Of a stretch of 24,000 bases of DNA, positions 1,186-20,064 are shown piece after piece. The stretch comes from Acholeplasmatales bacterium (GTDB lineage: Bacteria > Bacillota_I > Bacilli_A > Acholeplasmatales > UBA5453). The notes under the pieces are model-generated. The model was not told where the DNA came from, did not search any database, and saw nothing but the letters and a program-made list of their open reading frames with translations. Position 1 is the first letter of the stretch. Each line of letters begins with the position of its first letter. Made by a program: the position numbers and the translations under genes. The stretch spans positions 273 through 24,272 of the forward strand of contig JBMNFC010000009.1 of NCBI GenBank assembly GCA_050949105.1, written 5' to 3'.

Positions 1186-1459
1186 TAGAAAGCCAATAGT
1201 TATTAAAGAGCCTAAATTAGATGAATCTTTTAAAATTATTCAATTTGTGAAAATTGAAGGCTTAAAGAAAAACAAACAAAGAAAATATAAACGCCAGGAA
1301 TTTATTAGTCCGATTTTTGGTTTAACTGTTAAAGATGATGTTGTGGCACCGTATGTTAATAAAGATACCGGTGATATTGCAAAACAATATGACTTTATGC
1401 GTGATCATCCAATTAATGATCCCAAAACTTATCATGAGTTTAAAGGAAACAATGGTTAA
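1172..1459 (+). CDS. hypothetical protein (95 aa), translationally coupled to or part of the downstream FtsK-like gene
   Basis: ORF track. Good SD AAAGGGGGA at 1155-1163, 8 nt before ATG 1172. The stop at 1457-1459 overlaps ATG 1452 of the translocase (ATGGTTAA). Confidence 0.55.
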   Translation: MSLFNRKPIVIKEPKLDESFKIIQFVKIEGLKKNKQRKYKRQEFISPIFGLTVKDDVVAPYVNKDTGDIAKQYDFMRDHPINDPKTYHEFKGNNG

Positions 1460-3290
1460 TACTGAAACAAGAAAAGAAGTTTTTGGCGCGGATGTTTATG
1501 TCAATACTGGAAGAAAATATGTTGATCCTAGAAAAAAAGAAGGAAGTATTGATGTTCCTTTCGCCGGTAAAAAAGAAGTTACTTTTGATCAAGTAATTAA
1601 GCCAAGAGAAGAATATTTAAAGGAAGAAATAATTTATAAAAAGGAAGAAATTAAAGAAGAAGTTCCTAAAACTCCTTTCTTTGAGGCTAAAGTAGAGGAA
1701 CATGAAAGAGTTAAACCTAAAGTTGTAGAAGAAATTAGTCGCCTAGAAGAAATTAGACCACACACACCTGAGGTAGAAACATTTAGTCCTGAACCATTAG
1801 AAGTTGAAGACACTAAAGTCACTTTAACACCTAAAGAAGTAGAACCTGTTAGGGAAGTTGTTAAGCAAAAACCAAGAAGAAAATATATTCCGCCAACTCA
1901 TGAGATGTTTTCTAAAGTTGAGCGTGATCAAAACGCGCGTCCTGAATGGTTAGTAAGATTAGAAAACACAGTTAATGAAACATTAAGTCAATTTGGTGTT
2001 GATGGTAAAGTTCATAATATTATTAAAGGACCAACTGTTACAAGATATGAAATCGCCTTAGAACCAGGTGTTAATGTTAAAAAAGTTGAGGGAATCAAAG
2101 ATAACTTAATGATGAACTTAGCAGCAGAATCTTTAAGAATTGAAGCGCCAATTCCAGGAAAACCTTATGTTGGATTAGAACTTCCAAACGAAGTTCCAGA
2201 AATCGTCGCTTTTGGAAATGTTGTTGAAGATCCTGAGTTTATCAATTCCAAAGCGCCACTTAAGATTGCCTTAGGTGTAGATATTGATGGTAATAATATT
2301 TTTTATGATATTAAAAAGATGCCACATGGTTTAATCGCAGGGGCAACCAATAGTGGTAAATCAGTATGTGTTAACACAATAATTATGTCCCTACTGATGA
2401 AAAACCATCCGGATGATTTAAAGTTTATTATGATTGACCCAAAGATGGTTGAATTATCAATTTATGATGGTATTCCTCACCTAGTGACACCGGTAATTAC
2501 TGAACCTAAAATGGCCGCAACCGCGCTTGCTTGGGCGACAGAAGAGATGGATAATCGTTTCTTAAGATTCGCTAATGCCAGAGTTAAAGACTTAGAAGGT
2601 TATAATGAAAAAGCGTTAACAGATTCTTCACTAGAAAAGATGCCTTATATTATTATCGTCATTGATGAGTTAGCGGATTTAATGATGGTTTCTGCTAAAG
2701 ATGTGGAAGATTCAATTCAAAGAATTACCCAAAAAGCAAGAGCGGCAGGAATTCACTTATTAGTTGCGACACAAAGACCAACAACTGATGTTGTTAAAGG
2801 AACAATTAAAGCGAATATTCCTACAAGAATTGCCTTTAAAGTTTCTCAAATCAAGATTCAATCGTTGTTTTGGATCAACAAGGTGCGGAACAACTTCTTG
2901 GTAGAGGAGATATGATTCTTAAGACTGTTGGTACTCCATTAAGATTACAAGGAGCCTTTATTAGAGATTCAGAAATTGAAGCAGTCACTGAATTTATCAA
3001 GGCGCAAATGGATCCAGAATACTTAATTGATCATAACCAATTAAAAGACTATAAAGAGAAAATTGAACTTGTTGAAGATGAACCTTTATTATATCCAGTT
3101 GCCCAGTTTTGTGGTAGTAGAACAAAATGCCTCAATTAACGCGATTCAAAAAGAATTTGGCATTGGCTTTAATAGAGCCCAAAAGATTATCGAATTATTA
3201 GAGAAAAAAGGTGTAGTTGGAGAAAGTGAAGGCACCAAAGCTCGCCAAGTATTAGTCACTAAAGCAGAATTAGAGGATATGTTATCATAA
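1452..3290 (+). pseudogene. ftsK: FtsK/SpoIIIE-family DNA translocase, soluble SftA-like (no N-terminal TM domain), interrupted by two single-nucleotide frameshifts
   Basis: Motor-domain motifs: Walker A GATNSGKS, Walker B IIVIDELADLMM, ATQRPT, and the C-terminal gamma wHTH (IQKEFGIGFNRAQKIIELLEKKGVVG). The reading frame runs frame 0 (1452-2846), then frame 2 (2846-3109; SNQDSIVVLDQQGAEQLLGRGDM...PVAQF), then frame 0 again (3111-3290; VVVEQNAS...). As written, frame 0 terminates at 2913-2915. The track's 1335 start is an out-of-frame overlap with the upstream ORF. Confidence 0.85.
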
Positions 3291-4193: not shown

Positions 4194-4221
4194 GGTTATG
4201 TAGTAATTTGAGGTGATTATT

Positions 4222-5215
4222 ATGAACTACACTCCACCATTTACAATAACTAACTTTATGATTGATAAGGTTTCTTCAATCATGAAAAATATTGGTAAAT
4301 TGGATAATTATCAAGATTTAAATAAAATGCCAGTATTAAGAAGAAATAATCGAATTCATTCGATTCATTCATCACTGGCAATCGAAGCCAATTTATTATC
4401 ATTTAATCAAGTGAAAGATATTATTGATGGGAAAACCGTAATTGGTCCTAAAAATGAAATAAAAGAAGTAAAAAATGCTTATAGTGCATATAAGTTAATA
4501 AATGAATTAAATCCATATCAAGTGAAAGATTTAAAAAGAGCTCATAGCGTGATGATGAATTTAATTGTTAAGGAATCTGGTGAATTTAGAAAGGGTCATG
4601 AAGGAGTGTTTGATGAAAAGGGGAATTGTATTCATTTGTGTCCTCCGCCTGAACAAATAAATTTACTAATTAATCAATTATTTAATTGGATGAAAGAAAA
4701 CAAAAATAAAATTCATCCCCTAATAGTATCATCAGTTTTTCATTATGAATTTGTGTTTATTCATCCGTTTTCTGATGGTAACGGAAGAATTGCGAGATTA
4801 TGGCAAAATGTCATCTTATCAAAATTTGAAATAATCTTTGAATATATGCCAATTGAAACACAAATTAAAAAATATCAAAAAGAGTATTACCAAGCAATAA
4901 ATATTTCTAACCAATCTGGAGATTCAACAGTGTTTATTGAATTCATGTTAAAAGTGATTGATGAAACAATTCTTGATTTACTAAAAAGCACTGCTACTGA
5001 AATTAACCGCGGTTAGCTTATATGTAAATAGACTTTTAGATGTAATGGAAGTAGGAGTAGAGTTAACTACTGCCGAGATGATGAGTAAATTAGGCTTAAA
5101 ATCAAGAATTTCGTTTAGAGAAAACTACTTAAAGCCAGCTTTAGAAAATGGCCTAATTAAGATGACCATTCCTGATAAACCGACTAGTAAAAATCAGATG
5201 TATTATAAGGTGTAA
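4222..5215 (+). pseudogene. fic: Fic/DOC-family AMP-transferase with C-terminal winged-helix domain, split by one frameshift near 4983-5014
   Basis: Fic active-site motif HPFSDGNGRIARL (4762-4800). N-terminal inhibitory-helix-like motif SSLAIEAN. The frame-1 ORF stops at 5014-5016. Frame 2 is open from 4985 to 5215 and encodes the typical Fic C-terminal tail (VSLYVNRLLDVMEVGVELTTAEMMSKLGLKSRISFRENYLKPALENGLIKMTIPDKPTSKNQMYYKV). Likely start is ATG 4222 (SD GAGGTG 6 nt upstream) rather than GTG 4213. Confidence 0.8.
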
Positions 5216-9005: not shown

Positions 9006-12000
9006 GTGAGATTTAAAAAGACGCTAAAATTATTAACATTAATTTCGTTTTTATTATTAGTACTTGTTGGTTGTGGAAAGACTGAGAACAATGAAAATAA
9101 TAAAGAAGATAAAGCAGGAGCTAAAATCTACTTAAAAGATGTAGAGGCAGATGTCGATATTGAGATTCCAATTGTAAAAGAAGGACCATTAGGTAAATCT
9201 GAATTGATGCCGATTCCTAAAATTAATGGGTATTTATTTGTTGGAACAGATGATTTTATTATTATTGAATATGCCCAACCATTTAGTACTTATTATCTTC
9301 CATACATAAAACTTGATGATATTAGACCTAATGAAGGTAGGATTATATTTAAGTTCGTTGATGATGATAACATAATGTTTGATTTTGTTCAAATTAAAGG
9401 TGAAGTTGGAACAAATTATAAATATGTAAATGAATATGTAAATAATGGGCTTAATTTAGTTGATCATAGTCAAAAAATAATTAATGTTACATTTGAAAGT
9501 GATGTTCAAATAATTATAGTAAGATATACTGAAAAAACAGCTGTATACTTTGCTCATGAATATAAAGTTAACTACTTAGAAAGGAATACTAATAAAGTTT
9601 TACACGAAACTAAGATAGGCGAGCATTATGCTGGACCATTAGAATTAGGTAAACATCCAGTAATTCCGGGTTATAAATTAGTGACTAACGAGACAATAAT
9701 AGAAATTACGGCCAATAACTCAGCCAATGTGTTAAATGTATACTATATTAAAGATGATAATCAATGGGTAACTATCGCATTTGAATCGGGATTAAATGCG
9801 ACATTTACTGGTTCAACACCAACTTCATATGAAGTAATTAAGAATCATCCGTTAAACGGAGCTAACCAACCCCAAATTAAATTACCAACAATTACTCCAA
9901 ATTCTGGATATATGCTCAATCCAAATGGAAATTGGTCACCAACATTATTAGCATTTGAAACTGATGAAGAAGTTTCAGAAGACATAACATTTTATGCTCA
10001 AGTAGTGGTAAATGAAGAGAAAAAATTTAATTATACAGTTTATTATTTAAATTTATCTTTTGGAAATGTCCATCCAAATAAAACAGGAACACATCATGTT
10101 GGATTATTAGATTTAGGTGAACATCCAGAAATTGCGGGTTTTATATGCACAACTGATGAAACAACATTAGAAATTACAGCTGATGAACATGCAAATGTAT
10201 TACGTGTTTATTATGAAAAAGATGATGAGCAATGGGCTACAATTACATTTTCACCGGGATCAAACGCTAGAACAGAAGGTCCTGCAGTTTATGAAGTAAT
10301 TAAGAACCATCCATTTAATGGTGCAAACCAACGAGAAATTATTCCACCATCACTATTTCCATATCTTGGATATATGATTGATCCAGCCGAAACCTGGTCT
10401 CCAGCATTCAAAGTTGATGGAACAGTTGAAGGAGATGTGACATTTGTTGCCCGAATAATTCCAAATGAAAGCCTTAAGTATGGGTATGTGGTTAACTACT
10501 TAGAAAAAGACAAACCTAATAACGTGTTATATAATAAGTTAACAGGAATGCATCATGTTGGAACATTAGATTTAGGTGAACATCCAGTAATTCCAGGTTA
10601 TAAGCTAGTAACAACTGAAACAACAATAGAAATTACAGTTCATGAATATCAAAATGGATTAAATGTTTATTATGAAAAAGATCCAACCAAGTGGGCTAAG
10701 ATTACATTTAGACAAGGTGCTAATGCAACAGTAGCTGAAACACAATTTGAGGTGATAGTAAATCATCCACTTAATGGTGCAAATCAACCTACTATTACAC
10801 CACCAGCAATTACTCCAAATTATGGTTACAAAGTATCAACTCAACCTTGGGGTTCAGTATATAGTGCAAATCTCCAAATAAGTGAAGCTACAACATTTAC
10901 CTCTAATGTAGTTGTAGATCAATTAGTAAAAACATTTACAGGGACAGTTAAATATCAAATTGAAGGTAAAGAAACTGTAGAAGAAACTAAAACGGTTAAT
11001 GGATATATTAATGAACTAGTGACCATACCAGCACATGCGGTATCTGGATATAAAGTTAAAGCATCACAACCTACTCATATTACAATACTAGAAGATGGTA
11101 GTGCAGTAAAAACAGTTTTATATGAAAAAGATCCAACCAAGTGGGCAAAGATTACATTTAGACAAGGGGCTAATGCAACAGTAGTTGAAACACAATTTGA
11201 GGTAATAGTAAATCATCCACTTAATGGTGCAAATCAACCTACTATTACACCACCAGCAATTACTCCAAATTATGGTTACAAAGTATCAACTCAACCTTGG
11301 GGTTCAGCATATAGTGCAAATCTCCAAATAAGTGAAGCTACAACATTTACCTCTAATGTAGTTGTAGATCAATTAGTAAAAACATTTACAGGGACAGTTA
11401 AATATCAAATTGAAGGTAAAGAAACTGTAGAAGAAACTAAAACGGTTAATGGATATATTAATGAACTAGTGACCATACCAGCACATGCGGTATCTGGATA
11501 TAAAGTTAAAGCATCACAACCTACTCATATTACAATACTAGAAGATGGTAGTGCAGTAAAAACAGTTTTATATGAAAAAGATCCAACCAAGTGGGCAAAG
11601 ATTACATTTAGACAAGGGGCTAATGCAACAGTAGTTGAAACACAATTTGAGGTGATAGTAAATCATCCACTTAATGGTGCAAATCAACCTACTATTAAAC
11701 CACCAGCAATTACTCCAGATTTAGGATATATGCTCAATCCAAATGAAGAAGATTGGTCACCAACATTTGAAGTTGCTGGACAAGTTACAGGACAACAAAT
11801 ATTTTATTCTCAAGTAGTACCTAATCCAGTATACTGGCGCGATGTTACTATTAAATATATAGGTCAAGATTTAAGTGGTTACTACACTACGGAATTGAAT
11901 ACTCACATTATTAGTGGAATTATTGGTAAAAATATAAATATTCCTAAAAAAGGTTTTACAGGTTTTTCTTATGAGTCAACTAACCCAACTACATATAAAG

Positions 12001-13391
12001 TTACTAGTGAAACTAATCAAGAAGTAACGGTTAAATATTCAAGAAGAAAAAACGCTATTTACTATTTAACTGAGGGAGGTCAACCAGTTCCAAGTCCTAC
12101 ATATAATGTCTATTATGGTGAGGAAGTTGTTGATGTATTTTATTTAGATTGTGAACCTAAAAAAACCGGTTATGTATTAACATGCTGGAATATTGGTGAT
12201 ACAGGACAACCATTAAAAGCAGGATATAAGATGCCAGATAATTTTATTAACTTAAAAGCTCAGTGGCAAGCAAACAGTTATACAATAGTATTTGATGGAA
12301 ATGGTGGTTCTGGTTCTATGCAAAATCAAACACTCACATATGACCAACAAATAGCATTAAACAAAAACCAATATTATAAAAATGAACATGACTTTATGGG
12401 GTGGTCTATTACACCTGGCGGTATAGCACAATATATTGATGAAGAAGTAGTAGCCGGCCTTGTAGAAAGCGGAACAATTACATTGTATGCGGTTTGGGAA
12501 TGGTGGGGTAGAAAGATAACATTTAATTTAAATGGTGGTAGTTTACCTGATGGAATTACTGAAATATATGTTAAAGATGCAAATTTCCCTTATGTCTTAC
12601 CATGGCCAACTAAAACACAAGGAGATGCCAATTTAGAATTCTTAGGTTGGTATTCAACAAATGACACTTCAGGAACTAAGTATAAGGTATTAAGTGTTAC
12701 TGAAGACTATACTTTATACGCTATATGGGGGGATGAGTGTTATTATATAGGCGAATATCCACAATCACTAATGGAAGATGCGGCACTAATAACAAAATTA
12801 GATCAGATAACACCTGAAGTATCAAGTAAAGAGTTATTTACATCAGGAGTTGAATCATATATTGAAGAATGGAAAACAGTTACTTATGGTGGGTATAAAT
12901 TTGAAAAAATGGGGGACAATTATTTTAAATATGAACCGATTGCGTTCTGTAAAGTAGCAGAAGATGGAACATTATATTCTAAATATATATTGGATTACTC
13001 AACTTTCGATAACGGTTTAGCAAATTCAAATAATTTTGACACTAGTTATGTTAAACAATATCTAAATGAAGTAATTAAGATTAAAGCAGGATTGACAACA
13101 ACATTAGGATTATTGTCAAAAGAACAACTATTGAATCCGATTAATTTTGCTAATGATGATGCAAGAAAAGCTACGCAAACAGATTATGCAAGAATAGCGA
13201 TATATCCAAATCGAAGAAGCAATCTACCTTGGGCTGGTGATACTAATTACATGAATCAATATTGGACAAATACCGCAGTATCAGGTGAAAATTATCGTGT
13301 CCATTATGTCAGTTGGGTAGGAGGGCATTTATCAGGCTGGGGTCTTGGTACTAATGGCGTAGTAGGTCTTCGTATTACTCTTAGTGATTAA
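9006..13391 (+). CDS. giant modular surface lipoprotein (1,461 aa): lipobox signal peptide, alternating MucBP-like and beta-repeat modules, three Listeria-Bacteroides (InlB B-repeat) type repeats, C-terminal globular domain
   Basis: GTG start 9 nt after AGGAGG. Signal peptide MRFKKTLKLLTLISFLLLVLVGC with lipobox LVGC (9063-9074). MucBP-like modules recur, e.g. YKVNYLE...IPGYKLV...NVYYIKD. Modules of the form WxxITFxxGxNAT...NHPLNGANQP...TPxxGY also recur. Flg_new-like units occur at about 12051-12732 (YTIVFDGNGGSG...GWS...TLYAVWE). The C-terminal domain ends YWTNTAVSG...GVVGLRITLSD. Confidence 0.9.
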   Translation: MRFKKTLKLLTLISFLLLVLVGCGKTENNENNKEDKAGAKIYLKDVEADVDIEIPIVKEGPLGKSELMPIPKINGYLFVGTDDFIIIEYAQPFSTYYLPYIKLDDIRPNEGRIIFKFVDDDNIMFDFVQIKGEVGTNYKYVNEYVNNGLNLVDHSQKIINVTFESDVQIIIVRYTEKTAVYFAHEYKVNYLERNTNKVLHETKIGEHYAGPLELGKHPVIPGYKLVTNETIIEITANNSANVLNVYYIKDDNQWVTIAFESGLNATFTGSTPTSYEVIKNHPLNGANQPQIKLPTITPNSGYMLNPNGNWSPTLLAFETDEEVSEDITFYAQVVVNEEKKFNYTVYYLNLSFGNVHPNKTGTHHVGLLDLGEHPEIAGFICTTDETTLEITADEHANVLRVYYEKDDEQWATITFSPGSNARTEGPAVYEVIKNHPFNGANQREIIPPSLFPYLGYMIDPAETWSPAFKVDGTVEGDVTFVARIIPNESLKYGYVVNYLEKDKPNNVLYNKLTGMHHVGTLDLGEHPVIPGYKLVTTETTIEITVHEYQNGLNVYYEKDPTKWAKITFRQGANATVAETQFEVIVNHPLNGANQPTITPPAITPNYGYKVSTQPWGSVYSANLQISEATTFTSNVVVDQLVKTFTGTVKYQIEGKETVEETKTVNGYINELVTIPAHAVSGYKVKASQPTHITILEDGSAVKTVLYEKDPTKWAKITFRQGANATVVETQFEVIVNHPLNGANQPTITPPAITPNYGYKVSTQPWGSAYSANLQISEATTFTSNVVVDQLVKTFTGTVKYQIEGKETVEETKTVNGYINELVTIPAHAVSGYKVKASQPTHITILEDGSAVKTVLYEKDPTKWAKITFRQGANATVVETQFEVIVNHPLNGANQPTIKPPAITPDLGYMLNPNEEDWSPTFEVAGQVTGQQIFYSQVVPNPVYWRDVTIKYIGQDLSGYYTTELNTHIISGIIGKNINIPKKGFTGFSYESTNPTTYKVTSETNQEVTVKYSRRKNAIYYLTEGGQPVPSPTYNVYYGEEVVDVFYLDCEPKKTGYVLTCWNIGDTGQPLKAGYKMPDNFINLKAQWQANSYTIVFDGNGGSGSMQNQTLTYDQQIALNKNQYYKNEHDFMGWSITPGGIAQYIDEEVVAGLVESGTITLYAVWEWWGRKITFNLNGGSLPDGITEIYVKDANFPYVLPWPTKTQGDANLEFLGWYSTNDTSGTKYKVLSVTEDYTLYAIWGDECYYIGEYPQSLMEDAALITKLDQITPEVSSKELFTSGVESYIEEWKTVTYGGYKFEKMGDNYFKYEPIAFCKVAEDGTLYSKYILDYSTFDNGLANSNNFDTSYVKQYLNEVIKIKAGLTTTLGLLSKEQLLNPINFANDDARKATQTDYARIAIYPNRRSNLPWAGDTNYMNQYWTNTAVSGENYRVHYVSWVGGHLSGWGLGTNGVVGLRITLSD
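10671..11716 (+). repeat. in-frame tandem duplication, 450-bp unit, about 2.3 copies
   Basis: Unit boundaries at 10681, 11131 and 11581. Copies 1 and 2 differ at only 5 positions (10697, 10718, 10735, 10754, 10858). The third copy diverges after about 11716. Confidence 0.9.
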
Positions 13392-14950: not shown

Positions 14951-16328
14951 AAATCTATCAAGTCGCCTACAAATGGCGTTAAGAAGAGTTACAGGAAAAG
15001 GACAACTTACTGAAAAAGACATTGATGAAATGATGAGGGAAGTAAGGCTTTCTTTGCTAGAGGCAGACGTTAATTTAAAAGTAATTAGAACGTTTATCGC
15101 GAATGTCAAAGAAAAAGCTTTAGGAGAAAAGATCTTAAAGGGATTAAATCCTGGTCAACAAGTTTTAAAAATAGTTAGTGAAGAACTCACAAAAGTAATG
15201 GGCGAAGAAAATGTTCCCCTTAAGTTTAAAACTGCTGGTGTCACTGTCTTTATGACTGTTGGGCTTCAAGGTTCTGGTAAAACTACTGCGATAGGTAAGT
15301 TAGGAAGATTACTTAAAAAAGAAGGCAAAAAAGTGATGTTTATTGCCGCAGACGTTTACCGTCCTGCTGCAATTGATCAATTAAAGACATTAGGTGGTCA
15401 AACTGATATCTTTGTTTATGAAGAAGGAATTAAAAAAGCTTTAGGAATTGTTAAAAACGGTTTAGATTACGCGAAAGAAAATCACTATAACGTTGTCATA
15501 ATTGATACAGCGGGAAGATTAGAAATTGACGCTGAGATGATGCAAGAACTTAAAGATATTAAAGAGTTTGCTGCACCTGATGAAATTTTATTAACCGTTG
15601 ATGCGATGATGGGTCAACAAGCCGCGAATGTGGGGTTATCTTTTCATGAACAATTAGGTTGTACAGGTGTTATTGTCACTAAACTTGATGGGGATACTCG
15701 TGGTGGTGCAGCACTATCAATTAGACAAATATCTTCCTTACCAATTAAGTATGTCTCAAGTGGTGAGAAATTAGATAGCCTAGAGGTTTTCCATCCAGAA
15801 AGAATGGCCCAAAGGATTCTTGGAATGGGCGATATGATGACTTTAATCGAAGAGGCAACGGCGAATATTTCCGAAGATGACGCGATGAGTTTAATGGAAA
15901 AAATGCTTAGTGGTAAGTATGATTATAATGACCTACTAAAACAGTTTAAAATGATTAAACGCATGGGTTCATTATCAAGAATATTAGGTTTTTTACCAGG
16001 AATGAAAAACCTTAAACAACAATTATCTAATGTTGATGATAAAGAACTTTTTAGAATTGAAGCGTTAGTTAAATCAATGACTAAGGAAGAAAGAAGTAAT
16101 CCTCTTTTAATTGAAAAACAATACAAACGAAGACGAAGAATTGCCGATGGAGCTGGGATGACTGTTAATGATGTCAATAAGTTAATTGAATCAAGACGCC
16201 AACAAATTAATATGGCTCAACAGATGCAAGGTATGAATCCAAATAGTTTAAATCCACAAATGCCTAAGATGCAACCTCAAAGGGTTAAAAAGGGCAAAGG
16301 TAAAGGTAGAGGCGGATTTAGATATTAA
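14943..16328 (+). CDS. ffh: signal recognition particle protein Ffh
   Basis: N-terminal MFENLSSRLQ. GLQGSGKTT, DTAGRL, TKLDGDTRGGAA. Met-rich M domain and basic tail. ATG 14943 overlaps the ylxM TGA (ATGTTTGA). An in-frame ATG at 14934 is the alternative start. Confidence 0.93.
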   Translation: MFENLSSRLQMALRRVTGKGQLTEKDIDEMMREVRLSLLEADVNLKVIRTFIANVKEKALGEKILKGLNPGQQVLKIVSEELTKVMGEENVPLKFKTAGVTVFMTVGLQGSGKTTAIGKLGRLLKKEGKKVMFIAADVYRPAAIDQLKTLGGQTDIFVYEEGIKKALGIVKNGLDYAKENHYNVVIIDTAGRLEIDAEMMQELKDIKEFAAPDEILLTVDAMMGQQAANVGLSFHEQLGCTGVIVTKLDGDTRGGAALSIRQISSLPIKYVSSGEKLDSLEVFHPERMAQRILGMGDMMTLIEEATANISEDDAMSLMEKMLSGKYDYNDLLKQFKMIKRMGSLSRILGFLPGMKNLKQQLSNVDDKELFRIEALVKSMTKEERSNPLLIEKQYKRRRRIADGAGMTVNDVNKLIESRRQQINMAQQMQGMNPNSLNPQMPKMQPQRVKKGKGKGRGGFRY

Positions 16329-16354
16329 ACATGTAAAGTTTATTAAATGACACG

Positions 16355-16396
16355 AGAATGTATTATATCAGAGAAATATAAATACATTCTTTTTTA
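16355..16396 (+). terminator. rho-independent terminator after ffh
   Basis: Perfect 10-bp stem AGAATGTATT (16355-16364) / AATACATTCT (16381-16390), followed by TTTTT. Confidence 0.7.
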
Positions 16397-16423
16397 TGTT
16401 TTCGCTCACTTAGCATTGAAATA

Positions 16424-16432
16424 TGTTAAAAT
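16424..16432 (+). promoter_or_regulatory. extended -10 element TGtTAAAAT, candidate promoter of the NTPase gene
   Basis: tgttaaaat at 16424-16432, located downstream of the ffh terminator and 70 nt upstream of ATG 16502. Confidence 0.4.
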
Positions 16433-16501
16433 TAACTTAGAAGTCTAATATCTAAATCAACCAAAAATAAGTTTTAGTATGGAAAAAAAAGGGGGGAGAA
16501 A

Positions 16502-19500
16502 ATGGGTAACGACACAAAAAATAAAATTGATTTAAACACTATAGAATTGCCAAGTAATGAGCCTAAATACCATGAGGAATATAAGGCTTATGCTACTATT
16601 TTAAAGAAGAAAATTGATGATATTAATATAAAAAACATTGGGATAGTAGCTCCATATGGTGCTGGGAAAAGTTCTTTATTAAAAACATATGTTGAGATGC
16701 AAACTAAAGAAGATAAAAACTTCAAAAATAGGGTAATATCAGTATCATTAGCTAATTATGGTTCAATTATAAAAAAACTTGCTAATAAAGAAGATAAACA
16801 AGATGATTTTAATGATGAACAAAATGTAGAAAAAAGCATACTACAACAATTGTTTTACAAAAATGATAATAAAAATACTCCATATTCTAGATTTAAAACT
16901 TTAAAAAATAAAACAAAGCAAAATATAGGTATAACGATATTGCTTTTGCTTTTATTTATGTCAATTTCCTTTTTGTCTTTTCAGTTTTTTGATAACATTT
17001 TTAAAATTAATTTTGCTCTTTTGTGCCATAAAATAGTTATAGGTGTAAATATATTAGTATTATTGGTAAGTTTAGGGGGTTTGCTTTTCATTGTTATAAA
17101 AAACAAATTCGTAAAGTCAGTTCAAGTTGGAAATCTTAATTTTGAAAAAAATGAAAGTGATTCTATATCTGTTTTTAATAAGTATTTAGATGAAATAATT
17201 TATTTTTTTCAAAAAAATGATTTTAATATTTTAATAATTGAGGATTTAGATAGATTTAACAATTTAGGAATTTTTTCAAAATTGAAAGAGTTAAATACTT
17301 TATTAAATAAAAATGATGCTATTATTAAAAAACATGGGAAAATTACATTTGTGTACGCAGTGAAAGATTCTATGTTTGAATGTGAAGAAGATAGAAGTAA
17401 ATTTTTTGAATTTATTTTGCCAGTAATGCCGTCTTTAACTTCAAAAAATGTTAAAGATGAGTTAGAAGATATGCTAAAAAAGAAATTTAAAAAAATGCCT
17501 TTGAGTTCGCAATTAGTAATAGATGTTTCCGATTATATTACTAGTAGAAGAATTCTTAATAATGTTGTTAGCGATTTTATCATTCATTTATTGATACTCA
17601 ATATTGATATGATTGATAAAGATAAAACAGATAAATTATTTAGTCTAATGGTTTTAAAAAACATATTACCACTAGAATATGAAAATTTACAAAACCAAAA
17701 CGAAAAATCGCTTATTTTTAAATTTTTAAATATAGTAAAAAAAGAAATAATTGATAAATTAGTCTCTGTTTATAAAGAAAAAATAAAGCAATATGAGGAA
17801 GAAATTAAAAAACAAGACAAAGAACATCTTGATTCAAAAGAGGATTTAAAAAATATATTTTATGGTTTAGTTTGCAGAAAATATTTCGAATATAGTCATA
17901 TCAAGTATGAATTAGATACTTTCATTGGAACGAATAAAATAAACATGAGTGCTAGAAATTACTATAATTCGTCAACTTTCACTGTTTCGGTTAAAGATAT
18001 TGAGACATCAAACAACTATGAAGACGGCTTTTTTTCAAAAAGAGAAAATGTAATACTACAAAAAATGAATTTTGATAAAAACAATATAATCAAAGAAATA
18101 AACAAATTAAAGAGAAAAATTAACGAATTAAATAATTTGACATTTAAAGAATTGTTTAATGACTATAATCAAGAATTTGATGATTTAAATTTTGAAAAAG
18201 AATATATTAGATTAGTATTAGTGAATGGTTATGTAGATGAGACATATATGGATTATCTTTCTGAACAGTCTGATTTTTTTATGACTTCTAATGACAAAGA
18301 GTTGATAAAAAAAATAAATTATAGAGAAAAAACAGGTTTTTTAGATAAAATAGATGAACCAGATAAAGTGGTTTTGGCTTTAGATGAAAATAAATTTGGC
18401 TATAAGTATGTTATGAATTATTTTATAATCAAAGAATTGATTAATAAGAAAAAGAAGTATTCAAAACAGTTTGAAAATTTCACAATGATGATAAAAAACG
18501 AAGAAGATAGTATCAAAGAAGCTTTAGAAGAGTTAGTTAATTCTGATTTAGATTATGATAGTATTTTAATAGTGTTATCTAAACATACAACCTATACATG
18601 GGATCTGATTTATAAAAGTAATTTAATTTCAGATGACAAAAAAGATGAGATGTTTTTTTTGTTGATAAACAGCGAAGAAATAAATATTGAAAATCTGAGT
18701 AACTTAAACCATAATGAGAATATTATTAAAAAAATAAATTCTGTTAAAAATTTTTGTCAAAAATTTAATTCTCAAACAATAACAATAGAAAAATTGCATG
18801 AAGAATTTAATCTTTATTTAAATGATGTTGGTGAAATAGTAAAAAATAAAAATTCTGATTTTGTTATAAAAAACAACTTATATGAATTAAACTTGAATAA
18901 TATAGTAAACATCTTAAAATACTATTATTCTGAAGAAGAAAAAGATATTAATTCAAGAAATTATGATGTTGTTTCTAATTTGGCAGAAGGATCATTTAAA
19001 GAAAGAATTACTGAAGATTTAAGTTCATACTTACAAATTATTTACAACAATTTAGACAATGGTGATTTGTCGATCGAAAAGTTAACTGAAATATTAATAA
19101 ATAAAGAAATAGATATAAATTTAAAGACGAAAATTATAGAAAAAGAGATTAATAACATAGATTATAATGTTAGTCTCGATAATGAAATTCTTGAATTACT
19201 ATTAAAAAAGAAAAGAATAAAGATGTCTTTAAATAACATAATAGATGTTTATAAAACAGTAGATGAAGAATTAATTAAAAATTATATAGAAGAAAACCAT
19301 AAAGATATGCAGATAACGGAAGAATTACTGAAAAATAATACAGAATTTAAAAGTTTTTTCTTTAACAGCGTAGATATCAGTCTGTTTATTGAAAAAATTG
19401 GAAGTGGCTATGACAATATATCAGCAATTGTAAATTCTAAAAACATTGAACTACTTTTAAACAATGAGTTGGTAACGTATTGTAAAGATGATTTTCGTAT

Positions 19501-19996
19501 TTTTTTAAACAAAGAAGTTCATTTAGAAAAATATTGTGAGTTATTTGGTGATAACATCCTCAATGAATGTTTGAATGGAACTATGATACCAAAATCGGAT
19601 GAAATTGTGACAATGTATTTTGCTACAAAAAAAAGTAAGGGGGAATTATTTAATTGGATTTTGAAGAGAATTACCGAAACAGAATTACAAGAAATTTTCA
19701 AAAAAGAAAACATTAATGATTTTATTAATTCAGTAGAAGATATAGATTGTTTAACTAATGATGTACGGAAATATATAATTAATGAAACAAATGATAAAGA
19801 AATAATTGAAAAAAATTTAATTTCTTTACATAAAAATGGTTACAAAGATTGGTTATCTATTTTTAGAGAGAAAAATAATTTTATCAAAAATAGTGTCTAT
19901 AGATATGAATATCATAATGAAGAATTTTATTATTTATTAAGAAGTAATGTCCATTGTAACCGTAGAAAAGGCGTTGCAACGATAAGATTTTCGTGA
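16502..19996 (+). CDS. YobI/KAP-family-like P-loop NTPase with a transmembrane hairpin inserted in the NTPase domain and a long helical C-terminal region (1,164 aa)
   Basis: Walker A GIVAPYGAGKSS (nt 16640-16675). Two hydrophobic helices at aa ~141-163 (16922-16990) and aa ~172-199 (17015-17098). Walker B ILIIEDLDRF (17228-17257). The remaining ~830 aa are K/E/N/I-rich with coiled-coil-like stretches. G-rich SD at 16491-16498. TGA stop. Confidence 0.85.
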   Translation: MGNDTKNKIDLNTIELPSNEPKYHEEYKAYATILKKKIDDINIKNIGIVAPYGAGKSSLLKTYVEMQTKEDKNFKNRVISVSLANYGSIIKKLANKEDKQDDFNDEQNVEKSILQQLFYKNDNKNTPYSRFKTLKNKTKQNIGITILLLLLFMSISFLSFQFFDNIFKINFALLCHKIVIGVNILVLLVSLGGLLFIVIKNKFVKSVQVGNLNFEKNESDSISVFNKYLDEIIYFFQKNDFNILIIEDLDRFNNLGIFSKLKELNTLLNKNDAIIKKHGKITFVYAVKDSMFECEEDRSKFFEFILPVMPSLTSKNVKDELEDMLKKKFKKMPLSSQLVIDVSDYITSRRILNNVVSDFIIHLLILNIDMIDKDKTDKLFSLMVLKNILPLEYENLQNQNEKSLIFKFLNIVKKEIIDKLVSVYKEKIKQYEEEIKKQDKEHLDSKEDLKNIFYGLVCRKYFEYSHIKYELDTFIGTNKINMSARNYYNSSTFTVSVKDIETSNNYEDGFFSKRENVILQKMNFDKNNIIKEINKLKRKINELNNLTFKELFNDYNQEFDDLNFEKEYIRLVLVNGYVDETYMDYLSEQSDFFMTSNDKELIKKINYREKTGFLDKIDEPDKVVLALDENKFGYKYVMNYFIIKELINKKKKYSKQFENFTMMIKNEEDSIKEALEELVNSDLDYDSILIVLSKHTTYTWDLIYKSNLISDDKKDEMFFLLINSEEINIENLSNLNHNENIIKKINSVKNFCQKFNSQTITIEKLHEEFNLYLNDVGEIVKNKNSDFVIKNNLYELNLNNIVNILKYYYSEEEKDINSRNYDVVSNLAEGSFKERITEDLSSYLQIIYNNLDNGDLSIEKLTEILINKEIDINLKTKIIEKEINNIDYNVSLDNEILELLLKKKRIKMSLNNIIDVYKTVDEELIKNYIEENHKDMQITEELLKNNTEFKSFFFNSVDISLFIEKIGSGYDNISAIVNSKNIELLLNNELVTYCKDDFRIFLNKEVHLEKYCELFGDNILNECLNGTMIPKSDEIVTMYFATKKSKGELFNWILKRITETELQEIFKKENINDFINSVEDIDCLTNDVRKYIINETNDKEIIEKNLISLHKNGYKDWLSIFREKNNFIKNSVYRYEYHNEEFYYLLRSNVHCNRRKGVATIRFS

Positions 19997-20027
19997 TTTT
20001 TAAGGAATTAATAAAGCAAAAATAGTT

Positions 20028-20064
20028 AAAGACACACGATGATTTTCATTGTTGTGTCTTTTTA
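20028..20064 (+). terminator. rho-independent terminator after the NTPase gene
   Basis: Stem AAAGACACA (20028-20036) / TGTGTCTTT (20053-20061), extendable through CGATGA/TCATTG, followed by a T-run. Confidence 0.65.

Follow-up and report, generated by a model that had tools for sequence, protein, structure and literature searches.

A gene on the plus strand of a 24,000-nucleotide stretch of contig JBMNFC010000009.1 from an Acholeplasmatales bacterium (the window) encodes a divergent member of the already described Tmn (YobI-family) anti-phage proteins. The gene, referred to here as tmn, encodes a P-loop NTPase interrupted by a transmembrane (TM) hairpin and followed by a long C-terminal region. 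This architecture is real, and it has been published. A preliminary description of the same DNA had picked out the unusual layout; it did not name Tmn, nor did it recognise the architecture as one that had been described. The gene and its start are located as follows.

16502..19996, plus strand: tmn open reading frame (ORF), 1164 amino acids (aa), the sole long ORF there
16490..16499, plus strand: strong Shine-Dalgarno-like AGGGGGGAGA, 2 nucleotides (nt) upstream of the tmn ATG, read from the sequence

Membership of the YobI/Tmn family is nearly certain. The Pfam model YobI-ATPase (PF20693) matches aa 30–400 with an E-value of 3.3e-84 and 284 bits (cut-off 27), spanning profile positions 1–359 of 363. 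The PADLOC model for Tmn (PDLC02220) matches aa 28–957 (E 3.4e-39), with model positions 40–1037 of 1273 matched and 78% of the model covered. A homologue search with the protein retrieved 988 proteins; PF20693 is present in 120 of the 120 matches listed, and most are 1100–1260 aa long. Bacillus subtilis YobI, compared here via the Pfam model that is named after it, is similar in size (approximately 1200 aa) and shares the full-length PF20693 match. The product itself is identical (100% match) to MGI6360140.1, a ‘hypothetical protein’ at NCBI from a metagenome-assembled genome (MAG) labelled Acholeplasmatales bacterium, and is composed of 12% K, 11% N, 11% I, 11% L, and 9% E. No NCBIfam model matches it.

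The preliminary description had placed the protein with both the KAP NTPases and YobI. The YobI part of that placement stands, whereas the KAP part does not, as the Pfam model KAP_NTPase (PF07693) gives no match at E <= 1. Like the KAP NTPases, which include PifA of the F plasmid and Enterococcus EF_KAP (PMC13552941), the tmn product has a P-loop with TM helices in or near the NTPase domain. KAP proteins also carry C-terminal regions of unknown function, and KAP defence depends on Walker B (PMC13552941). However, the TM helices of EF_KAP are arranged differently and its C-terminus has 322 aa, and TM segments within the P-loop domain are common to KAP and YobI/Tmn proteins and therefore do not discriminate between them. 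The two families are related, since two distant homologues of the tmn product (P0064 and P0091) carry both PF07693 and PF20693 among their precomputed matches.

Relatives of tmn are also carried by plasmids. A tblastn search of plasmid sequences returned 626 records, chiefly conjugative plasmids of E. coli, Klebsiella, and Salmonella, and the RefSeq label for these plasmid homologues is ‘anti-phage transmembrane ATPase’. Pairwise BLASTP against one of them, WP_223364258.1 (E. coli plasmid, 1271 aa), gives 27% identity across aa 29–450. The same type of tblastn search found no homologue in a collection of phage genomes; thus, tmn is not phage-borne in the collection searched. The family profile has no match in the PDB by sequence at E <= 0.01, which indicates that no Tmn structure has been deposited there.

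Gao et al. (2020) were the first to report Tmn, and Wu et al. characterised it, in a 2023 bioRxiv preprint on defence-system synergy and in a 2026 preprint (PMC13001434). Initially, it was described as a single-gene defence system, comprising a KAP NTPase whose P-loop domain contains two TM helices. The preprint of March 2026 reclassifies Tmn as a YobI-family protein, distinct from KAP (PMC13001434). It presents E. coli Tmn-25 as a decameric membrane complex with a central channel, based on an 11.6 Å cryo-EM map and AlphaFold 3 modelling. Each proximal arm consists of a conserved coiled coil and a variable alpha/beta domain, and each distal arm is an alpha-solenoid of ARM-like and HEAT-like repeats (given in its scheme as 6 ARM, 5 HEAT, and 2+2). 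The cytosolic, alpha-helical arms jointly bind the phage T2 protein RIIB and so recognise the trigger, whereas the effector role falls to the NTPase hub embedded in the membrane (PMC13001434). According to the same source, activation of Tmn-25 leads to ATP depletion and Mg2+ export, then plasmolysis, with no depolarisation or leakage. Defence is lost on mutating G66/K67, Y262, D276/R279, N297, K325/F326, and R374, and is likewise abolished by the proximal-arm mutations F506 and Y541/R544. Across the family, most of the variation falls in the arms, and the genes have no operon setting in common (PMC13001434).

The N-terminal 400 aa of the tmn product carry the elements expected of this family. 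Conservation is given for 112 aligned sequences, that is, E. coli WP_223364258.1 added to 111 family sequences.

16649..16672, plus strand: Walker A (P-loop) APYGAGKS, aa 50–57; G55 and K56 present in 111 of 112 aligned sequences
16913..16987, plus strand: TM helix 1, aa 138–162; Kyte-Doolittle 2.51, AlphaFold2 helix, family-wide
17018..17107, plus strand: TM helix 2, aa 173–202; Kyte-Doolittle 2.65, AlphaFold2 helix, family-wide
17228..17257, plus strand: Walker B strand and DLDR motif ILIIEDLDRF, aa 243–252; strand 243–247 in the model
17258..17701, plus strand: second half of the NTPase domain, aa 253–400; N269, K300, F301, and R350 invariant in 112 sequences

Both Walker motifs lie exactly where the preliminary description had put them (GAGKS at aa 53–57, IIEDLDRF at aa 245–252), and its claim of two hydrophobic helices between them is borne out by hydropathy and by the model. 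The hydrophobic segments cover aa 142–163 and 172–199. Kyte-Doolittle hydropathy, computed with a 19-aa window, peaks at 2.51 (aa 139–166) and 2.65 (aa 168–204), and does not exceed 1.44 outside aa 130–210. When the sequence of the product was shuffled 5000 times, two equally hydrophobic windows arose in four shuffles and a pair within 60 aa in none. The hairpin is flanked by K/R-rich stretches (RFKTLKNKTKQN ahead and KNKFVK behind), and its helices are connected by a loop of 10 aa, FDNIFKINFA. Because of these positively charged flanks (the positive-inside rule) and the short loop, both ends of the hairpin are placed in the cytoplasm, and consequently the two halves of the NTPase are able to meet there. 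A two-helix hairpin at aa 138–202, between Walker A and Walker B, thus serves as the membrane anchor of a cytosolic NTPase domain. The arrangement is general in the family: 105 of the 112 members examined have a hydrophobic segment between Walker A and Walker B, and most of these have two.

In the AlphaFold2 model, the hairpin interrupts a five-stranded P-loop sheet (strands 45–49, 78–82, 243–247, 282–287, and 304–307). Foldseek searches of the PDB with the N-terminal part return AAA+ and P-loop proteins (RdrA of RADAR, ORC/Cdc6, RFC, and DnaA), and a search of a viral structure library gave generic AAA+ and clamp-loader matches only.

Positions essential to Tmn-25 provide a residue-level link to a validated defence protein. 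All nine essential NTPase residues are identical in the tmn product (Tmn-25 residue first): G66/G55, K67/K56, Y262/Y234, D276/D248, R279/R251, N297/N269, K325/K300, F326/F301, and R374/R350. Tmn-25 numbering was inferred as an offset of +2 from WP_223364258.1, judged by Walker A. The nine alignment columns are invariant or nearly so; in the Walker B region, E247 and D248 are invariant and R251 occurs in 111 of the 112 sequences.

The C-terminal 760 aa are predicted to form a coiled-coil/beta proximal arm, an ARM/HEAT-like distal solenoid, and a small cap, and this C-terminus corresponds to the sensor arm of Tmn.

17702..18166, plus strand: proximal arm, aa 401–555; AlphaFold2 confidence (pLDDT) mostly 82–91
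18167..19891, plus strand: distal arm, aa 556–1130 (approximately 575 aa); alpha-solenoid of about 40 short helices in the AlphaFold2 model
19892..19993, plus strand: C-terminal alpha/beta cap, aa 1131–1164; strands 1132–1136, 1151–1155, and 1158–1162, helix 1140–1149

The full-length AlphaFold2 model, built with the family alignment, has a mean pLDDT of 85.8, and a separate model of aa 556–1164 reaches a pLDDT of 91.0 and a pTM of 0.75. In the proximal arm, long antiparallel helices (404–439/446–460 and 510–544) surround a small beta domain at 466–496. These helices match the coiled-coil-like stretches noted in the preliminary description, which had otherwise left the C-terminal 830 or so aa ‘unassigned’; the region now divides, by AlphaFold2 and Foldseek, into the two arms and the cap. 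Proximal-arm positions important in Tmn-25 align with similar residues here: Y541 with F511 in an aromatic column, R544 with R514, and F506 with L471 in a hydrophobic column. The distal arm, the short helices of which run from roughly aa 560 to 1125 in the full-length model, varies more than any other part of the protein, and the cap is conserved in the close clade only.

Checking the C-terminus by structure model and Foldseek, as the preliminary description had proposed, turned up alpha-solenoid scaffolds only and no catalytic fold. Against the PDB, the arm matches solely HEAT/ARM scaffolds (PP2A-A, CRM1, importins, CAND1, SF3B1, and AP beta subunits) and designed repeat proteins. E-values for the matches range from 4e-4 to 1e-2, and TM-scores are low, which is to be expected of solenoids that differ in curvature. 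No nuclease, protease, TIR, Sir2, or pore-forming domain was found in the product by Pfam, NCBIfam, PADLOC, or Foldseek, in agreement with the first reading of the sequence. With aa 560–1164 as the query, an exhaustive phmmer search of 1.84 billion representative proteins found 147 relatives, only seven of them at E <= 1e-30. Most are 1150–1300 aa long and match near positions 560–1000, and the shorter ones resemble contig-truncated fragments. Since most relatives have the length of Tmn and match at the same position, the arm appears to be confined to the Tmn architecture, and its last 200 or so aa are specific to the close clade.

Conservation within that clade (29 sequences) follows the division into domains. 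Mean identity to the query is 0.62 in the first half of the NTPase and 0.72 in the second, compared with 0.34 in the TM hairpin, 0.31 in the proximal arm, and 0.35 in the distal arm. A conserved core with variable arms agrees with the picture drawn in the preprint (PMC13001434). Within the arms, conservation is concentrated at the junction between them.

18215..18262, plus strand: junction motif VLVNGYVDETYMDYLS, aa 572–587; top-conserved 30-aa window of the C-terminal 760 aa

The best-conserved C-terminal window begins at aa 573, in the close clade and in the broad alignment alike, and coincides with a motif, LVNGYVDETYMDYLS at aa 573–587, that the preliminary description had reported at precisely this place. 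Over the 112 sequences, the motif reads [LIV][LIV]xNGY[ILV]DExYxxYxS. In and around it, G576 is found in 105 sequences, Y585 in 99, D598 in 105, F632 in 107, and N639 in 111. The aligned stretch of E. coli Tmn is LLSSGYLSTDYMSYRS, close to the boundary between proximal and distal arms that the preprint sets at N-604. The passages of the preprint that were consulted make no mention of the NGY(I/V)DExYxxYxS motif (PMC13001434). From its position, the motif could act as a hinge or coupling element that relays trigger binding to the NTPase, a possible and speculative reading.

Compared with E. coli Tmn-25 and WP_223364258.1 as a whole, the tmn product has the same plan: a single large polypeptide with Walker A, a TM hairpin, Walker B, and the essential NTPase residues. 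There follow a predicted proximal coiled-coil arm (F511/R514 corresponding to Y541/R544), a GY..(D/E)xY..Y.S junction motif, and a distal ARM/HEAT-like solenoid. In both cases, the gene stands alone, without conserved operon partners. Unlike E. coli Tmn, with which the 27% identity extends over aa 29–450 only, the protein is approximately 100 aa shorter (1164 vs. 1271 aa), its external loop has approximately 10 aa rather than approximately 22 (P177–P198), and the tip of its distal arm (the last ~200 aa) is unrelated in sequence. It is also chromosomal in an Acholeplasmatales (Mollicute) host, whereas the E. coli gene lies on an enterobacterial F-type plasmid or chromosome. A looser likeness exists with STAND/AVAST-type NTPases, in which an NTPase switch is likewise combined with a variable helical-repeat sensor for a phage protein. 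However, those proteins are soluble, tetrameric, and usually have a separate enzymatic effector, whereas the tmn product is membrane-embedded and has no separate effector domain.

The genomic position of tmn identifies it as an accessory, monocistronic insertion in a housekeeping region. The insertion and the two hairpins that bracket the gene are as follows.

16329..20018, plus strand: single-gene insertion of approximately 3.7 kb at the ffh/polA boundary; left edge at the ffh stop, right edge +/- 10 nt
16354..16396, plus strand: hairpin and U-run within the insert; -10.7 kcal/mol, z -2.5, followed by UUUUUU; now terminates ffh
20028..20064, plus strand: hairpin and U-run downstream of tmn; -16.8 kcal/mol, z -5.7; original ffh terminator of the uninterrupted locus

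In related contigs whose PolA is 95% (L025), 90% (L026/L027), and 74% (L028) identical, 105–118 bp separate ffh from the polA gene behind it, and tmn is therefore a strain-specific insertion. Alignments across the junctions (A4 and A5) break immediately past the ffh stop and at about 20018, and the hairpin at 20028–20064 aligns with the post-ffh hairpin of L025 and L027. A consensus terminator scan called neither hairpin; the stem at 16354..16396 is AT-rich and its loop is long. The order ffh-tmn-polA recurs in an independent assembly of run SRR31061295. In keeping with its accessory status, tmn has its own Shine-Dalgarno sequence and is flanked by hairpin terminators.

At the edges of the insertion, no convincing direct or inverted repeats, target-site duplication, insertion sequence (IS), integrase, or recombinase were found. 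The last 13 nt of ffh (GATTTAGATATTA, window 16315–16336) recur in inverted orientation approximately 110 nt further on (16437–16458), inside the insert. About one such chance match is expected in an AT-rich region by a rough estimate, and the copy is probably not meaningful. The closest homologues (57–50% identity) occupy unrelated neighbourhoods: one adjoins an IS3-type transposase and a serine recombinase, and another lies among housekeeping genes, including cell-wall amidases. The flanks of tmn are not shared with the loci of close homologues, and the coding sequence alone aligns, with 71% nucleotide identity to that of L002. The GC content of tmn is 22.5%, and at third codon positions (GC3) it is 0.18, equal to that of the neighbours. 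The low GC content was considered as a sign of transfer and rejected, as it stems from codon positions 1 and 2 and thus from the K/N/I-rich composition of the protein.

The host matters for how Tmn might act here. Named relatives of its PolA come from Acholeplasmataceae MAGs (72%), Paracholeplasma vituli (57%), and Haploplasma axanthum (54%), which supports the Acholeplasmatales label at NCBI. Acholeplasmatales are Mollicutes, which have neither a cell wall nor an outer membrane, and the host of tmn is presumably wall-less.

By analogy with the characterised homologues, an anti-phage function for the tmn product is probable. If the E. coli scheme applies, the TM helices and the NTPase domains would hold the protomers together in a ring-like hub, decameric in E. 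coli, from which the arms would extend outwards into the cytoplasm. Early in infection, these arms would bind a protein encoded by the phage; here, the trigger protein would presumably come from phages of Acholeplasma-like hosts. Trigger binding would switch on ATP hydrolysis, ATP would be depleted, Mg2+ would be driven out of the cell, and phage development would stop. The preliminary description had suggested that the large helical region might be a sensor or scaffold and the membrane part the effector, and the roles assigned to these parts in E. coli Tmn (PMC13001434) lend support to that suggestion for the homologue. Confidence is distinctly lower for the Mg2+/plasmolysis output, which is put forward here as a tentative possibility, mainly because the host is presumably wall-less.

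Several points weigh against this interpretation. Defence has been demonstrated only for a handful of E. coli and other proteobacterial variants, outside the present subclade. The protein shares little identity with E. coli Tmn, and past aa 450 BLAST finds nothing significant. The mechanism of Mg2+ export and plasmolysis comes from one preprint and an 11.6 Å cryo-EM map (PMC13001434). The locus has no recognisable defence island, the sole other defence-like gene (a SoFic-like Fic gene) being 11.5 kb away, and GC3 at the level of the neighbours gives no compositional sign of recent transfer. If the Acholeplasmatales host has no wall or outer membrane, as presumed, plasmolysis as described cannot occur. 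Because the membrane cannot retract from an absent wall, the loss of ATP and Mg2+, or shrinkage of the whole cell, would have to carry the effect.

This last point leads to the rival that survives best, which is that the YobI-family NTPase defends by another output: ATP depletion alone, export of another ion, or PifA-like depolarisation and leakage. Plasmolysis would then be a by-product specific to the E. coli envelope. A different output is favoured by the Acholeplasmatales host, a lineage that in textbook accounts lacks a wall from which the membrane could retract, by the shorter external loop (approximately 10 aa vs. 22), and by the TM hairpin, which is less conserved than the rest of the N-terminal half (identity of 0.34 within the close clade). 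The preprint also suggests that Tmn homologues may answer to other triggers or export different ions (PMC13001434). The KAP protein PifA is reported there to depolarise the membrane and leak nucleotides, which Tmn does not. However, every NTPase residue on which the E. coli mechanism depends is conserved, the two proteins agree in their overall predicted architecture, and there is no positive evidence for a different output; this alternative appears rather unlikely.

A second alternative, that the tmn product serves the general function first proposed for TM-inserted P-loop NTPases, is improbable. It draws on the generic role of alpha-solenoids as protein-interaction scaffolds, on the housekeeping neighbours (ftsY, ylxM, ffh, polA, mutM, and coaE) and host-like GC3 of the gene, and on the failure of any NCBIfam model to name its product. 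Yet the gene is missing at the same locus in near-identical relatives and is thus dispensable, its homologues are scattered over unrelated contexts, some of them beside recombinases, and a match of 930 aa ties the product to the model of an experimentally validated defence protein. Least credible is the idea, raised in the preliminary description, that the C-terminus hides an unrecognised enzymatic effector domain: the high-confidence models contain helical repeats and two very small beta elements, the only family-wide island in the arm is the junction (aa 572–587, D598, F632, and N639), which bears no typical active-site signature, and searches of this region gave scaffolds only (Foldseek against the PDB) or nothing (Pfam and PADLOC).

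The surroundings of tmn are those of a housekeeping region. The co-directional gene order is ftsK, lepB, Fic, ylqF, rnhB, topA, a gene for a 1461-aa lipoprotein, ftsY, ylxM, ffh, tmn, polA, mutM, and coaE. Across the window (1–24000), all 17 of the 17 substantial ORFs are on the plus strand, GC skew is positive throughout, and cumulative skew rises steadily, consistent with a leading-strand, co-oriented core region.

Two further genes of this region vary between strains. The lipoprotein gene (9006–13391, plus strand), between topA and ftsY, encodes a predicted signal peptide with an LVGC lipobox, MucBP and Listeria-Bacteroides repeat domains, and long near-identical internal repeats; its product is probably an adhesin. 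This gene is missing in L026–L028, where topA adjoins ftsY directly, and is therefore another strain-variable insertion. No LPXTG-type sorting motif was noticed near the C-terminal end of the protein, and a lipobox without such a motif is a weak hint of a wall-less host. The Fic gene (4213–5016, plus strand, GTG start) encodes a 267-aa Fic-domain protein that matches SoFic, a PADLOC model for a single-gene defence system (E 1.8e-36, model positions 21–268 of 361). A Fic gene is found at the same place in L026/L027 and not in L028, where ylqF directly follows lepB. Besides tmn, the Fic gene may be a further accessory and defence-like gene of the window.

A Fic gene also lies approximately 4 kb from the tmn homologue in L022. 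In addition, an AAA_14/DUF4143 ATPase gene is found 3–7 kb from the tmn homologue in both L002 (18644–19498) and L022 (14155–15432), the neighbourhoods of which are otherwise unrelated.

At the other end of the window, ftsK is broken. Its main ORF occupies 1335–3284 (plus strand), with ORFs at 613–1185 and 1172–1459 upstream, and the N-terminal part also seems to be split. In frame 3, homology to the L028 FtsK extends over 1512–3284, but the stretch at about 2850–3095 can be read only in another frame (ORF 2870–3139), which indicates two compensating frameshifts. The break is either an assembly error of the MAG or a pseudogene. A genetic code with UGA as Trp, raised by a TGA in ftsK, was rejected, given the double frameshift and the use of TGA to end several intact genes.

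In most respects, tmn is an expected member of a described family, of minor interest for its Mollicute host, its empty site, and its junction motif. The empty-site comparison is a clean one, in which a single defence gene has been dropped at a housekeeping operon boundary without visible mobile-element machinery. Beyond this, tmn extends the Tmn family to a Mollicute-type host with a minimal envelope, in which plasmolysis could be separated from the loss of ATP and Mg2+ as the real antiviral effect. It is possible, though rather unlikely, that Tmn works in a single-membrane, wall-less cell; in that case, the family would owe its antiviral action to the depletion of ATP and Mg2+, or to shrinkage of the whole cell, rather than to plasmolysis as such.

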